A DNA stretch of 64,000 bases from Eledone cirrhosa (lineage: Eukaryota), in the NCBI GenBank assembly GCA_964016885.1, contig CAXHJY010001063.1, positions 62,001-126,000 of the forward strand, read 5' to 3'. The position numbers and the translations under genes were made by a program. Shown here piece after piece: positions 32,438-59,268 of the stretch. The notes below the pieces were generated by a model. It ran no database searches, was not told where the DNA came from, and saw nothing but the letters and a program-made list of their open reading frames with translations. Every line of letters starts with the position of its first letter. Position 1 is the stretch's first letter.

Positions 32438-33072
32438 TATTTTGAGTATATGTTGGTTGTATACCAACACCTAGTATGCAAGGTGGAGCACTCGACGAAG
32501 TGCGCAGGTTGGTTTGGTTACTCCGGAGTAATGTAAAATAAAGTTAAATAAAAATCAAATGTTTAAAATTTAGTGTTTGTGTTTGCTATTGTTTGTGTTT
32601 ACTACAGGGAGCCTCACCCCAGAAAGAATTCTATAGACTTCTGACTGAGTAATGCACTCAGAACTGACCAATGGGAAGTTTGACACTTTTTTGTTATTTT
32701 GTTCCTTTACCACCTTGTTCCTTCTACCACATTATCAATGTTTTAAGCAAACTACAACAATAACAACACTTAGAATGAGGAATGTTCTAACAACTGACCA
32801 ATGAGAGGAGAAGAGGCCCTTTGACACTGAAATTCGTTTGTTTGAATTCATATGATTCCAGTTCCTCAGTGAAATAACAAAACAACCAGGAACTGGGCAT
32901 ATCAGAGTATTGACAATATTATACACCTCAACAACATATGTACTTGTCTATACCATACTAATTCGGACTGCCTGAAGAGGTCACAGCCAAAGATGGCTGT
33001 CACTGAAATATATATAGCAGTAATAAACGAAGCTAAATTTTAAACATTTGACTTTTTATTTAACTTTATTTT
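32438..33072 (+). mobile_element. ORF-less Penelope-like pLTR fragment, family B copy 1: inverted 5' segment plus direct segment carrying a hammerhead
   Basis: 32533-32573 is the reverse complement of 33033-33072. Both ends match 53457-53998. A hammerhead lies at 32967-33021 and (TA)n flanks both sides. Confidence 0.75.
32967..33021 (+). ncRNA. Minimal type-I hammerhead ribozyme, family B
   Basis: ACTGC-CTGAAGA-GGTCACAGCCA.aaga.TGGCTGTCACT-GAAA-TATATA-TA|GCAGT: stem I ACTGC/GCAGT, intact core, palindromic stem III. Confidence 0.88.
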
Positions 33073-33268
33073 ATATATATATATATATATATATATATAT
33101 ACATATATATATATATATATATATATATACATATATATATATATATATATACATATATACATATATATACATATATATATATATACATATAACGAAGGAA
33201 ATATGGTAAGGAACCAGGTGGACCATAACGCACCAAAGTACTCAGTACTTAGGGTAGTAGAGTGGGTA

Positions 33269-33352
33269 ATAGGAACGAGTAGGACCCCGACGGCTGAGCA
33301 CAAGCCGTCCAAACGGCTTGAGCTCAGCGGTCGGGGTCCTACTCGTTCCTAT
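33269..33352. other. 84-nt GC-rich near-perfect hairpin
   Basis: ataggaacgagtaggaccccgac.g.gctgagc.a.caagccgt [ccaa] acggcttg.a.gctcagc.g.gtcggggtcctactcgttcctat: a ~40-bp stem with two mismatches. Confidence 0.9.
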
Positions 33353-34080
33353 ATATACACATATATATATATATATATATATATGGATATAAATATAGAT
33401 ATATATATGCAATACCCACATTCACACATATATATCAGTACACAACACACACACACATATATATCAGTACACAACACACTCACACATATACATCAGTACA
33501 TAACACACACACACACATATATATCAGTACACAACACACTCACACATATACATCAGTACACAACACACACACACACATATATATCAGTACACTCACACAC
33601 ATACATATATATCAGTACACAACACACACACACATATACATCAGTACACACACATATATATATCAGTACACAACACACATATACATCAGTACACAACACA
33701 CACACACATATATATCAGTACACTCACACACATACATATATATCAGTACACAACACACACACACATATATATCAGTACACAACACAATCACACATATATA
33801 TCAGTACACACTCACACACATACATATATATATATCAGTACACAACACACACATATATCAGTACATAGCACACTCACATACTCACACATATATATCAGTA
33901 CATAACAGACACACACACATATACATCAGTACACAACACACACACACATATACATCAGTACACAACACACTCACACATATATATCAGTACACAACATACA
34001 TACATCAGTACACAACATACATACATCAGTACACAACACACACACATATATATCAGTACACAACACACACACACACACAT

Positions 34081-35037
34081 AAGACCCGCCTTACCTAAGT
34101 ACAAAGTGAAACCTACTACAGTCAGTAGGCACCTCTAACAAAATACACCCTCGTACCACTACCCCCACCCCATCCACACCACCCCTTTCAATGTAGAGTT
34201 ATGTTGGTACCACAACATCCAGGCCGAAACAAATGAGGTCGTGTAGGTGTCACGACAAAAAACACAGTCCACGCTGTAATGTGGCCGTGTAGGTAACATG
34301 GTAAAAACCTACCAGTCCACACTAAATGTGGTTGGTGTTAGGAAGGGCATCCAGCCGTAGAAAACCCGCCAGACAGTCCACGCTGTAATGTGGCCGTGTA
34401 GGTAACACGGTAAAAACCTCCCAGTTCCACACTGTAAATGTGGTTGGTGTTAGGAAGGGCATCCAGCTGTAGAAAACCCACCAGATAGTCCACGCTGTAA
34501 TGTGGCCGTGTAGGGAACACGGTAAAAACCTCCCAGTCGACACTGTAAATGTGGTTGGTGTTAGGAAGGGCATCCAGCCGTAGAAAACCCGCCAGACAGT
34601 CCACGCTGTAATGTGGCCGTGTAGGGAACACGGTAAAAACCTCCCAGTCCCACACTGCAAATGTGGTTGGTGTTAGGAAGGGCATCCAGCTGTAGAAAAC
34701 CCGCCAGGCAGTCCACGCTGTAATGTGGCCATGTAGGTAAAACGGTAAAAATCTCCCAGTCCCACACTGTAAATGTGGTTGGTGTTAGGAAGGGCATCCA
34801 GCTGTAGAAAACCCGCCAGACAGTCCACGCTGTAATGTGGCCGTGTAGGTAACACGGTAAAAACCTCCCAGTCCCACACTGTAAATGTGGTTGGTGTTAG
34901 GAAGGGCATCCAGCTGTAGAAAACCCGCCAGACAGTCCTATGCGAGCAAGACAACCACTCTTGCCTCAAGTGGGAAAACCCCCGTCCAAACCCATGCAAG
35001 CGTGGAATTATGGACGTTAAACGATGATGATGATGAT
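34081..35037 (+). mobile_element. RTE-type LINE/SINE 3' end with a tandemly amplified UTR segment and a (GAT)n tail
   Basis: Shares cactgtaaatg.ggttggtg...aagggcatccagctgtagaaa with the RTE 3' UTR at 31917-31962. Ends ...ggacgttaaacgatgatgatgatgat. Confidence 0.75.
34265..34938 (+). repeat. ~112-bp tandem repeat, 6 copies
   Basis: cacgctgtaa occurs at 34270, 34379, 34491, 34602, 34714 and 34826. Confidence 0.93.
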
Positions 35038-56641: not shown

Positions 56642-57878
56642 TGTGGGCCTATTTATAATTAATTCGCTGCATAGAAAAATACCTGGTGTAACCGGAGGAT
56701 TATATCGTGATGACATGCTTTTACTTATTGAAAATAATAACTCTGAACTAAATAGAAAAAGAAAACAAATTATACAATTTTTTAATTACCTTAATCTAAA
56801 AATAGAAATAGAGAATAACCATAGAATAGTCAATTTCCTAGATGTAACACTAAATCTCAACACATGTCTTCACTATCCATTTCACAACCTAAATGAAAAC
56901 TTGAATTATGTCAATTTTAACTCTAATCACACCAGATCTGTTAAAAATACTATAGTGAACTCTGTTCAAGAACGTATCTCAAGAATTTCATTTAATAAAA
57001 ATATTTTCGACGAAATAGCGCATTATTACAATGAAGCGTTAGCTAGAGCAGGATATAGTGATAAAATTATGTACATCGATAATAATAGGCAAACTAACCA
57101 ATATAACAACAATTTTAATTACGGTAACAACTTTAACAACTATAATAGAAAACATTACAATAATTCCAAAAGCCAGAAAAGAAATAGAACTTGAAATATA
57201 ATATGGTTTGCCCCCCCCCCCCCCTTCTCACTAAATATTAAAACCCACATTGCTAAACTATTTTTTAATGCTCTTGACAAACGCTTCCCTAGAACACTTA
57301 AATATCACTCAATTTTTAATAGACAGACTATAAAATTAACTTACTCGTCCACCAAAAGCTTAGCACAAAATATTAACAGAATAAATAATAGGAATCTAAA
57401 ACCTAGCCAAAATACCGATAATAGCCTAAACAATATTCAATTAAACAACTGTAACTGTAGAAATAAATCTAAATGTCCGTTAAATAACAATTGCTTAGTT
57501 AAAAATATAATATACAATTGTAATGTTAAAACTGACTTAAATTCTTTTAACTATATTGGTTCCACCTCGACAGAATTTAAACTTCGCTATAATAATCATA
57601 AGAATTCTTTCACAGATCCAGGCAAAAAATCTTCAACTTCACTTTCAGGCTTACTCTGGCAACTTAAACATGATAACGTTGGATATTCGTTGTTTTGGAA
57701 TATAGTCTCAAGAGGGATTCCTTTTAATTCCTCATCTGAGACATGTGACCTCTGCGTGGAGGAGATATTCTTTATATTAAAATCTAAAAATTCCCTTAAT
57801 CTAAGGAGCAATTTATTCAGTTGCTGCAGACATAGATTGAACTCAACGTTTAAATATAAATATAAATTTAAAATGTAG
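56642..57878 (+). pseudogene. 5'-truncated PLE ORF, family D: RT C-terminal half, Cys linker and GIY-YIG
   Basis: VGLFII...[18 protein letters not shown], a stop at 57192, a poly-C tract near 57210, then NCNCRNKSKCPLNNNCL, IIY..YIGST..F.LRY.NH and CDLC...CRHR. Confidence 0.9.
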
Positions 57879-58044
57879 TATATTTAGTTAAGATATTTAT
57901 TTAATTAATTATGAAACCTGACGATAAATCTTTCGATTCCTTCAACTTTTTCTTTTTTAAACCTTCTTCATAAATATATACTAATGATACCCTAAAATGT
58001 AGATGCTCCCAATCTATTGAATACATTTTACGCTAGATAAACTT

Positions 58045-58329
58045 CTATACTAAATATAAGAGCATCTGTAGAACAACAGGGTCTCCTAAATCTTTTAAAT
58101 GATTTCTGCTAAATAAGTCTTGTTGAAGAATTTTGGTTTTTTGTTTGCTTTTGATTCTGATTGCTTCTAATGAATTTGGCAATATATTGTCAGATAAATT
58201 GGAAGGGTTGATTTCTGTGGTTGATATGGGGGGCATACTGTGTTTTTTTAATGCCCTGGACACTCTAGGGAGTGATGAAAGTACTCTTAGCGTTTTGATA
58301 TATTGATATCTGTTGTCTATTCTATACAT
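58045..58329 (-). pseudogene. Possible decayed C-terminal fragment of a non-LTR retroelement ORF
   Basis: 94-aa ORF in non-repetitive sequence, with only loose similarity to LINE ORF2 C-termini and no diagnostic motif. Confidence 0.15.
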
Positions 58330-59202
58330 GAATGATAATCATGTATGTGAGGGCAGGAATATTAATATTAATATATATTTTTATGTATGTGTATGTATGT
58401 ATATATATATATAGTAAAATCTTTTATAACGCAAAGGAACATTTTTTCATGTGAAATAAGAAATTACAGAGTTGATCACGTATGTTCACGTGTATATCTA
58501 TAGTGTCAACTAGAACTTGAGATGACCTTCTCTTTTTCTCTTTCTTTCTTTTTCCGGAAAGTACATATATACTTATGTATTTTTGAAGTTTTATCTCAGG
58601 TTTTGGTATATCGACCTAAGAATTTTTAAACTAAACATATGGTCATTATTTTTCACACATTATATATCTACGTCTCATTCATGAATATTGATATTTACAG
58701 TATAATACCCAATTCATGAATTGATAATTCAAATTGATATGACATAACGTAAAGTTGTAAATCTCTCATCCTTCTCTCTAGATATAGCTTTCTTCTCCTC
58801 CCTCTATACATGTTGTAATTTAAGTATCACTGTTTTCTCTTTAGTTATTTTTTATTTCTCTCCGTCTCCTTAACACTATAACTAAATAAATAAATAAATA
58901 AATAATTACAGTACTCCCTCCTAAATCTCTCAATTTGTATGATGAATTATTATTATTATTCATCTGTGACCTCAGCTGCCTCTCATTTTTCACCTTCTCA
59001 CTATTTTTCTCTCTCCCATACCTCTATCTATCTCTCTCTGTTTTTCTTTACATACATTTATTCCTTCTCTCCGTCTTTCTTTCTAACTGTGCTTAACACT
59101 AAATATTTACAAACATTTCACTACCAAACCAACTTTTTTAAATGGAAGTTGATCAATATTTTATGGTACGTCAAATTTATTTATAAAACTGCTTATATAT
59201 TG

Positions 59203-59268
59203 TATTTTATCTGAAGAAGGCATGCCATATCTTTAATATGGTATCCCTGAAATATGTATAATGAAATA
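59203..59268 (+). ncRNA. Minimal type-I hammerhead ribozyme, family D
   Basis: TATTTTAT-CTGAAGA-AGGcATGCCATAT.cttta.ATATGGTATcCCT-GAAA-TATGTA-TA|ATGAAATA. It lies ~1.3 kb downstream of the family D ORF, just before (TA)n. Confidence 0.85.

Follow-up and report, generated by a model that had tools for sequence, protein, structure and literature searches.

Minimal type-I hammerhead motifs with palindromic helix III in four related Penelope-like families of Eledone cirrhosa

The window analysed here, a stretch of 64,000 nucleotides of Eledone cirrhosa DNA (assembly GCA_964016885.1, contig CAXHJY010001063.1, positions 62,001 to 126,000, forward strand), carries eight hammerhead motifs within 26 kb. 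The initial annotation assigned them to four unrelated families, A to D, each with a self-complementary stem III of its own that could act as a family-specific dimerisation key. This raises the questions of which elements carry the motifs, whether their RNAs are likely to be cut as dimers, and whether the palindromes are keys at all.

Eight motifs in five insertions

A sequence check of the window found all eight minimal type-I motifs in pseudo-LTRs (pLTRs), at the positions annotated and with the palindromes and NUA sites proposed for them; the motifs at 47424 and 53603 lie on the minus strand, and the predicted cleavage triplet is GUA in A and AUA in B, C and D. A structural descriptor recovered seven of the eight, the C motif failing its stem II filter, as against a mean of 0.01 matches per shuffle in 200 dinucleotide shuffles of the 32–60 kb region, which dispels the concern that shuffled sequence would yield such motifs as often; the occurrence of the eight is far above chance. 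A relaxed descriptor recovered all eight together with one extra antisense match inside the A ORF, a minus-strand core match at 49835 that was dropped as likely chance, having an imperfect palindrome and a 2-bp stem I. An Rfam scan of the window produced 177 matches (E ≤ 1); the 150 listed included no hammerhead family, and in nearly all of them (TA)n had matched miRNA models. Judged by sequence, the eight are genuine minimal type-I hammerhead-ribozyme motifs, borne at their ends by four Penelope-like elements that are related to one another.

Rather than eight separate events, the motifs represent five insertions: one of A with three motifs, two of B with one and two, and one each of C and D. 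The first B insertion (32432..33073), flanked by (TA)n runs, joins a short inverted piece to a 3′ end piece whose plus-strand hammerhead (32967..33021) has helix III ATATATAT at 33008-33015 and predicted cleavage after A33016. The whole A insertion (47382..53384), also flanked by (TA)n runs, consists of an inverted truncated copy, a partial pLTR and a full unit. The inverted, 5′-truncated copy (47382-48521) holds the minus-strand motif at 47424..47470, and the plus-strand motifs of the full unit lie in the 5′ pLTR (48950..48996; helix III ACAGCTGT) and, 4181 nt further on, in the 3′ pLTR (53131..53177; palindrome 53165-53172, predicted cleavage after A53173). Directly behind the A element, the second B insertion (53450..53998) is a short inverted pair between (TA)n runs, with one hammerhead in the inverted arm (53603..53656, minus strand) and another in the direct arm (53892..53945, plus strand; helix III ATATATAT). 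The C insertion (54490..55670, left limit provisional) comprises an inverted endonuclease/3′ UTR piece (54490-55274) and a 3′ end (55275-55670), ends in (TA)n and carries a plus-strand hammerhead at 55473..55541 with helix III ATGCGCAT. The D insertion (56642-59315) has its hammerhead at the 3′ end (59203..59268, plus strand), and the helix III of this motif, ATATGTAT, is a variant of ATATATAT typical of a subfamily.

Four of the five insertions have (TA)n at both ends and the C insertion at one, as expected from the (TA)n insertion preference of the Hydra clade. Their clustering probably reflects a region rich in (TA)n runs, which all five would target. Nowhere in the first 25 Mb of C1 did a 26-kb stretch contain all four families, so that the local mix of the window stands above that background. 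The motif lies 45–60 nt before the usual 3′ end of the element (47 nt in D, about 45 in A and 57 in B), and in tandem copies two motifs of one family are 3.3–4.2 kb apart.

The full A unit contains an intact open frame of 832 codons, assigned to a Hydra-clade Penelope-like element (49207..51705, plus strand; VRWRT, DKT, YRDD, CNCRANRTC, YVGST, CxxC and CxH), with 99% identity to the copy at genomic locus L134. The 5′-truncated D ORF (56642..57878, plus strand) retains the RT end, a CNCRNKSKC linker and a YIGST endonuclease and is broken by a stop at 57192-57194; a Pfam search of the A and D frames gave no match reaching the cut-off. Each motif family resides in its own Hydra-clade element's pLTR, with its own RT/endonuclease clade; motif and ORF were seen together in the window for A and at genomic loci for B (L124), C (L127 and L128) and D (L130 and L131), and the RT proteins of the families have 47–54% identity. 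The RWK-like motif and DKT typical of the Hydra clade are represented by VRWRT and DKT in A, IRWRA and DKT in D, RWI with DKT in C, and MRWKA with EKT in the single B copy covering that region. Behind each of the CxCX5C linkers (CNCRANRTC, CNCRNPESC, CNCRIKNKC and CNCRDRSKC) comes a Y[VIF]G[SA]T motif, from which the C-terminal GIY-YIG-like endonuclease was identified. On these signature motifs the four families are placed in Hydra-clade Penelope-like lineages; the RT and endonuclease trees, which contain this genome's copies alone, did not resolve the branching order of A, B, C and D and so lend no support to a palindrome that follows the lineage among families. Contrary to the initial annotation, the families are related: the ORFs that they flank are homologous Hydra-clade ORFs in every case, a stem II design of three base pairs, a C.Y mismatch and a long stem recurs in B, C and D, and stem I is common to C and D (TTTTRT / AY(A/G)AAAT). 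Assignment to non-LTR retrozymes was rejected, as this requires short non-coding tandem repeats and A–D are parts of ORF-bearing units of 3.3–4.2 kb.

Core and stems across genomic copies

Exact patterns detected 4,280 A, 9,325 B, 24,208 C-type and 17,269 D motifs genome-wide (reversed-pattern controls 0, 0, 6 and 0), about 55,000 in all. Families B, C and D have the canonical core (CUGANGA ... GAAA ... UH), varying freely only at N7 and keeping NUH. The core of family A is fixed and non-canonical, having C at U4 and, where stem II begins, an A.G as its basal pair: CCGAAGA replaces CUGANGA in all three window copies and, genome-wide, in 99 of the first 100, the C at U4 being present in all three subfamilies, and an A-related family retains U4. 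The G10.1-C11.1 pair is G-C or G.U in B, A-U or G.U in C and A.G in A, and fits in D if the first A of D is counted as an extra base after A9.

Stems I and II had been described as pairing in each case, with covariation to be expected per family. Strict pairing did not hold for A, with its A.G, for the B motif at 53603, where the first stem I pair is C.A, or for the window C copy, which, unlike most copies, has one mismatch in stem II and whose minimum-energy fold is not a hammerhead. Across copies of B, C and D the stems do stay paired, through one-sided G.U changes and some double changes (stem II base pair 6 of B, C-G to U-A; base pair 13 of C, U.G to C-G), in a comparison that counts changes copy by copy. 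The stems of A are nearly invariant and uninformative on covariation. Between the A subfamilies AGCT (n = 20) and AATT (n = 13) the motif minus the palindrome is 98% identical, compared with 65–68% for the flanks.

Palindromes, proposed dimer pairing and competing readings

We consider it probable that these minimal type-I hammerheads in the pLTRs of four Hydra-clade lineages cut RNA only as dimers, via their 8-nt palindromes. The computed helix III is unstable in the monomer (+2.4 to +4.7 kcal/mol) and stable in homodimers (−2.2 to −11.1 kcal/mol). The palindromes of two copies would pair into a shared helix III, permitting cleavage of the dimer; within a tandem transcript, cis pairing of the upstream motif with the downstream one would lead to a cut after NUA and free a unit-length RNA, and a lone motif, limited to 2 bp and a 4-nt loop, would remain uncut. 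The element's protein may be required as a chaperone. Minimal Penelope-like element (PLE) hammerheads are described as cleaving weakly in vitro (PMC4209133), and for the anole element cleavage is reported to require protein and to be dispensable for insertion in vitro, with no RNA-seq reads starting or ending at the cleavage site (PMC11167929). The idea of dimers formed via the palindrome is already published (PMC4209133; PMC3088659, Fig. S8 legend).

Variation among copies bears on this proposal. By hand count, the palindrome centres of the first 100 A copies are AGCT in 41, AATT in 33, AGTT in 22 and others in 4; AACT, the A.C form, is absent there and has 16 copies genome-wide. Because AGTT alone reaches 22 of the first 100 copies against these 16, the amplified variants, which keep self-pairing via G.U, support dimer pairing at the RNA level. 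The first 100 D copies comprise 68 with ATATATAT, 31 with ATATGTAT and one other. Counting against this support, the single-change background of B itself leans towards the wobble form (ATATGTAT 68 vs ATACATAT 40, p = 0.009, beside 9,325 B copies in all). The asymmetry amounts to about four amplified wobble states and thus to few independent events, since copies of one subfamily are not independent. A D search for ATACRTAT (14 ATACGTAT, 0 ATACATAT) was discarded as an unfair wobble test, its anchor mostly selecting ATATGTAT subfamilies. In comparison X1 the differences listed inside the A motif are the two central palindrome letters only. The A pLTR tree is perturbed by flanking (TA)n, and only the AATT clade (support 98/100) and the U4 outgroup were taken from it. 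A counter-example is a 469-bp tandem array, in which 4 of 12 units have a mismatched ACTCGT. Taken together, selection for a helix III that remains self-complementary appears supported.

The palindrome may be constrained to self-complementarity only, drifting per lineage through G.U intermediates such as the series AAUU, AGUU, AGCU in A and UAUA, UGUA in D. Incompatibility between A, C and B/D would then be a by-product of divergence, with no selected key. It seems rather unlikely that the palindromes are instead selected compatibility keys, by which co-resident families diverge in helix III and avoid pairing or cutting in trans or in nested read-through transcripts. Predicted energies do separate A, C and B/D into three classes without cross-pairing (A against each of the others, +5.4 to +7.7 kcal/mol; B against C, +5.7), the genome holds many different palindromes, and the first 100 ATGCGCAT motifs all have the appearance of C or of one of its subfamilies. 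A pattern search at spacers 22–32, too long for A itself, showed no further family carrying ACAGCTGT (3 matches vs 1 in the control). The palindrome centre is also nearly the sole site that differs between the A subfamilies, and AGCU is predicted to pair poorly with AAUU (−2.2 kcal/mol), more weakly than B with D (−3.2 kcal/mol). On the other side, B and D, both among the three largest families, have ATATATAT in common; ATATRTAT occurs in two or more additional families, ACAATTGT recurs in a U4-retaining relative of A, and ACTAGT is common to two families. The C palindrome stays constant while its stems vary, C with D(UGUA) is merely neutral (−0.1 kcal/mol), five element families of Hydra magnipapillata have acttTaagt in common (PMC8557442, supplementary File S2), and pairing in cis within a tandem transcript requires no key. 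The initial annotation was thus right to suspect cross-compatibility of B and D, which is predicted from the energies and whose palindromes are identical in most D copies; the notion of one palindrome per family, and with it that of family-specific keys, fails on this sharing and on the three common palindromes within A. Equally doubtful is the strongest version, in which dozens of Penelope lineages within one genome are sorted into RNA compatibility classes by their helix III palindromes, B and D activate each other's cleavage, and A, its U4C core fixed, is breaking up into an AGCU and an AAUU subfamily that are incompatible with each other and linked by AGUU. If true, it would constitute a natural RNA lock-and-key system partitioning retroelement RNAs.

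A further reading keeps the fold and drops the catalysis: the motif would serve, for example, as an RT binding site or a signal near the start of reverse transcription, with cleavage weak or lost, most clearly in A. The near-fixed C at U4 in A, maintained with ORFs still intact, fits this; a considerable drop in activity, which counts against dimer cleavage in A, is reported for C at U4 (PMC3088659; the CUGA turn passage of PMC9901934 is cited on the same effect). Inserted copies run beyond the predicted cut, so that the template must have been uncut or religated there, and catalytic mutants left insertion in vitro unchanged (PMC11167929). We nonetheless regard this reading as improbable, given the canonical core of B, C and D, the retained self-pairing of helix III, and the report that U4C is active enough in vivo for viroid infectivity (PMC3088659). 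Far less credible is that the palindrome acts as DNA, as an endonuclease target or protein site, or that the AT-rich palindromes are microsatellite by-products, suggested by the resemblance of ATATATAT to the (TA)n target and by an extra TA in the palindrome region of 4 of 43 B haplotypes. Strand symmetry would be expected of a palindrome that acts as DNA, but amplification is seen for G.U forms and not for A.C forms, an asymmetry that largely refutes this reading; moreover, neither A nor C has an AT-rich palindrome, GAA and the cleavage base always bracket the palindrome in register, and shuffles and reversed patterns yield almost none.

Relation to known hammerheads and Penelope-like elements

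Dimer-acting PLE hammerheads are closest to the motifs proposed here. Cervera and de la Pena (2014, PMC4209133) describe minimal type-I hammerheads in the pLTRs of metazoan PLEs, with a short helix I, a long helix II and a palindromic 15.2-16.2 region, present in thousands of copies and several sequence families per genome, mostly as single motifs from truncated copies, with opposite-strand pairs 100–700 bp apart and a proposed action as dimers. The Eledone motifs agree with this description in pLTR location, architecture, palindrome, copy pattern and opposite-strand pairs; they differ in the even 8-nt palindrome of helix III, the C.Y mismatch at the fourth stem II pair of B, C and D, the apparent lack of the conserved G10.1-C11.1 pair in A and C, and the C at U4 in A. 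Short stem III hammerhead variants tied to Penelope-like elements and dimer cleavage are attributed to Lunse, Weinberg and Breaker (2017), as cited in PMC6765202. By title or abstract start, no publication compared made the claim of family-specific keys, Lunse 2017 lying outside that comparison, and the role of Penelope-element hammerheads has been called a mystery (PMC7761336).

The host elements resemble the Hydra clade of C-terminal EN+ PLEs (Craig et al. 2021, PMC8557442) in the RWK-like motif, DKT, the CxCX5C linker, CxxC and CxH around the end of the endonuclease, (TA)n insertion, the tandem and inverted structure and the hammerhead near the 3′ end. Units here are 3.3–4.2 kb and published ones generally <3 kb; the published stem III is mostly 3–4 bp with a 1–3 nt loop, whereas the palindrome here is gapless, and none of the four families matched the Hydra-1_oBim motif listed there when compared by eye. 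Like PAc (Poseidon, Anolis; Frangieh et al. 2024, PMC11167929), the elements have a pLTR hammerhead, an end downstream of the cut site and an optional tail; PAc belongs to another clade, and its ORF begins inside the motif, whereas the A open frame begins about 210 nt downstream. Metazoan non-LTR retrozymes (PMC7229834; bioRxiv 10.64898/2026.07.22.740005) also carry type-I hammerheads, dimer-dependent in amphibians, in non-coding tandem repeats of 150–450 bp as opposed to the ORF-bearing elements of A–D. No new kind of system is revealed. The genome offers a large natural variant set, in which four families together hold about 55,000 motifs, one young element is intact, and the palindrome of A changes in three steps while the rest of the ribozyme stays constant; both the dimer model and the idea of keys could be tested cheaply on it. 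As far as the published descriptions extend, dimer-acting minimal hammerheads in pLTRs, their helix III being palindromic, are a known design (PMC4209133), to which the four Eledone families add new members.

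Hammerhead motifs and the insertions that carry them

All eight motifs reported in the initial annotation were found at their positions (family A at 47424 on the minus strand, 48950 and 53131; B at 32967, 53603 on the minus strand, and 53892; C at 55473; D at 59203), each in the order stem I, C[U/C]GANGA, stem II, GAA, 8-nt palindrome, A and stem I. A structural descriptor matched seven of the eight, compared with a mean of 0.01 matches in 200 dinucleotide shuffles, and a looser descriptor matched all eight. The assertion that the stems pair in every family was not fully borne out, the exceptions being an A.G pair at the base of stem II in family A, whose core is CCGAAGA, a C.A adjoining the cut site in the minus-strand B copy, and the window's C copy, which is slightly degraded and whose hammerhead fold, at a computed −0.9 kcal/mol versus a minimum of −7.6, is not the lowest. 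By eye, the CCGA that results from the C4 of family A (48954-48960, 53135-53141) could pair with a UCGG located around the loop of the motif's stem II, making an alternative pairing possible. A frequent repeat elsewhere in the genome (L148, L156, L158, L164), CTGAYGA ... CGAAAGG with the spacing of a hammerhead core, failed the helix III plus stem I descriptor.

Comparing the window with itself, and mapping it against natural copies of full length, placed the motifs in five insertions: B at 32432-33073; A at 47382-53384, made up of a truncated copy in inverted orientation, part of a pLTR and a complete 4181-nt unit whose frame has 832 codons; an inverted B pair at 53450-53998; C at 54490-55670; and a 5'-truncated D at 56642-59315. 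(TA)n flanks both ends of four insertions and one end of C. The poly-C run encoding FAPPP is in frame in the window D copy (57207-57222) and at L133; in the D copies of L130 and L131 it carries a frame shift, due to either homopolymer slippage or assembly error. The window also contains a 28-bp satellite (1907-28493, ~950 copies), a 51-bp array (37584-42111, ~89 copies), LINE-type RT frames at 30075-31235, with a PHD finger, and at 60877-62694, and three copies of a ~400-nt repeat (53995-54461, 55792-56365, 62781-63347), 91-95% identical and each adjoining (TA)n, which may resemble an RTE-type 5' region.

Relatedness and genomic distribution of the families

ORFs were found for B, C and D too, within stretches having two same-strand motifs 3.3-4.2 kb apart. 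The family ORFs show the Hydra-clade features described in section 11 of PMC8557442, namely an RWK-like motif, DKT, CxCX5C, CxxC and CxH, and (TA)n targeting. Across families the RT regions share 47-54% identity, and in RT and endonuclease trees each motif family forms its own supported clade, the trees giving no firm order among these clades. On these sequence criteria, A, B, C and D are assigned to related lineages, and the description of them as unrelated is abandoned; B, C and D are also alike in the design of stem II, and stem I is common to C and D.

Exact-pattern searches counted 4,280 A, 9,325 B, 17,269 D and 24,208 C-type motifs, the last taking in a few related families (ATACGTAT in 4 of the first 100 rows), with 0-6 matches for reversed-pattern controls. 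The total of 55,082 corresponds to about one motif per 54 kb of the 3.0-Gb assembly, in which the window spans G000:C1090:62001-126000. In the first 25.28 Mb of another contig, C1, 221 motifs form 154 clusters, a lower density than that of the window; one 26-kb stretch there contains eight motifs of two families, and none unites all four. Families co-cluster: a second family lies within 10 kb in 28 of the 154 clusters (mean 13, maximum 25 in 300 random placements), as would be expected from shared (TA)n targeting. A further 70 kb of the window's contig yielded six more descriptor matches, four of them A or C.

Helix III palindromes as candidate family keys

Palindromes were tallied by hand with helix III left open, in the first 100 rows in chromosome order, which are non-random samples. 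Family A had ACAGCTGT in 41 copies, ACAATTGT in 33, ACAGTTGT in 22 and others in 4; B had ATATATAT in 93; D had ATATATAT in 68, ATATGTAT in 31 and another in 1; C-type rows had ATGCGCAT in 90. Among 218 descriptor matches in fetched loci, further families carry ATATGTAT or ATATATAT, a U4 relative of family A carries ACGATTGT or ACAATTGT, ACTAGT serves two families, and ACCACTGGT, ACCTYTGGT, ACATGTGT, ATACGTAT and ACTGTACAGT also occur. In-register pairing energies predict three classes within the window: A, C and B/D. The proposed cross-compatibility of B and D agrees with prediction, yet the classes, real as predictions, are not one per family, and the reading of the palindromes as a distinct key for each family is not supported.

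In further hammerhead families the palindrome is odd, at 9 nt (ACCACTGGT, ACCTCTGGT, ACCTTTGGT), and these motifs adjoin Hydra-type endonucleases (L159-L170, L186, L187, L167, L171 and others), and 6- and 10-nt palindromes occur at these loci too; an extra TA gives a 10-nt palindrome in 4 of 43 distinct B haplotypes. At L185 (4566-9725; G000:C1:14.04-14.05 Mb) a small hammerhead is present in every one of at least 12 units of 469 bp arranged head to tail, in what looks like a non-LTR retrozyme-type array, with ACTAGT in 8 units and the mismatched ACTCGT in 4 of 12.

Amplified palindrome variants remain self-pairing if G.U is allowed. The A.C mirror form of A's G.U palindrome has 16 copies genome-wide, a level comparable to scattered single changes in the B palindrome (40 and 68 copies), a background itself tilted (p=0.009). 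Because G.U pairs form only on the sense RNA, the amplified G.U forms argue for pairing as RNA and count against a role as DNA, with only about four independent amplifications behind the asymmetry and the mismatched units of the L185 array as a further reason for caution. A subfamilies share 98% identity across the motif outside its palindrome, compared with 65-68% in the flanks and 75% in the protein's endonuclease half. Among the differences listed for the public run X1, those at 53168 and 53169 alone fall within the A motif; X1 gives no independent support, since it may come from the very source of the window or from something closely related.

Predicted cleavage and comparison with known systems

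As proposed in PMC4209133 and PMC6765202, motifs in tandem transcripts would pair through helix III and excise RNA of unit length, which might then be circularised. The inserted copies run beyond the predicted cut, implying that the template would have been uncut or religated there. PMC11167929 describes cleavage as protein-assisted and dispensable for insertion in vitro. According to PMC3088659, U4C, the substitution found in family A, considerably lowers activity while viroid infectivity is retained. Outside Lunse 2017, the most relevant paper, and the PMC4209133 supplements, our literature search found in print neither families A-D, nor a fixed-U4C hammerhead family, nor a family-key claim. 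The motif class, its palindrome and the dimer model have all been published, as have the occurrence of several families in one genome and that of hammerheads in Hydra-clade elements, and in PMC8557442 supplementary File S2, acttTaagt is common to five Hydra magnipapillata families.
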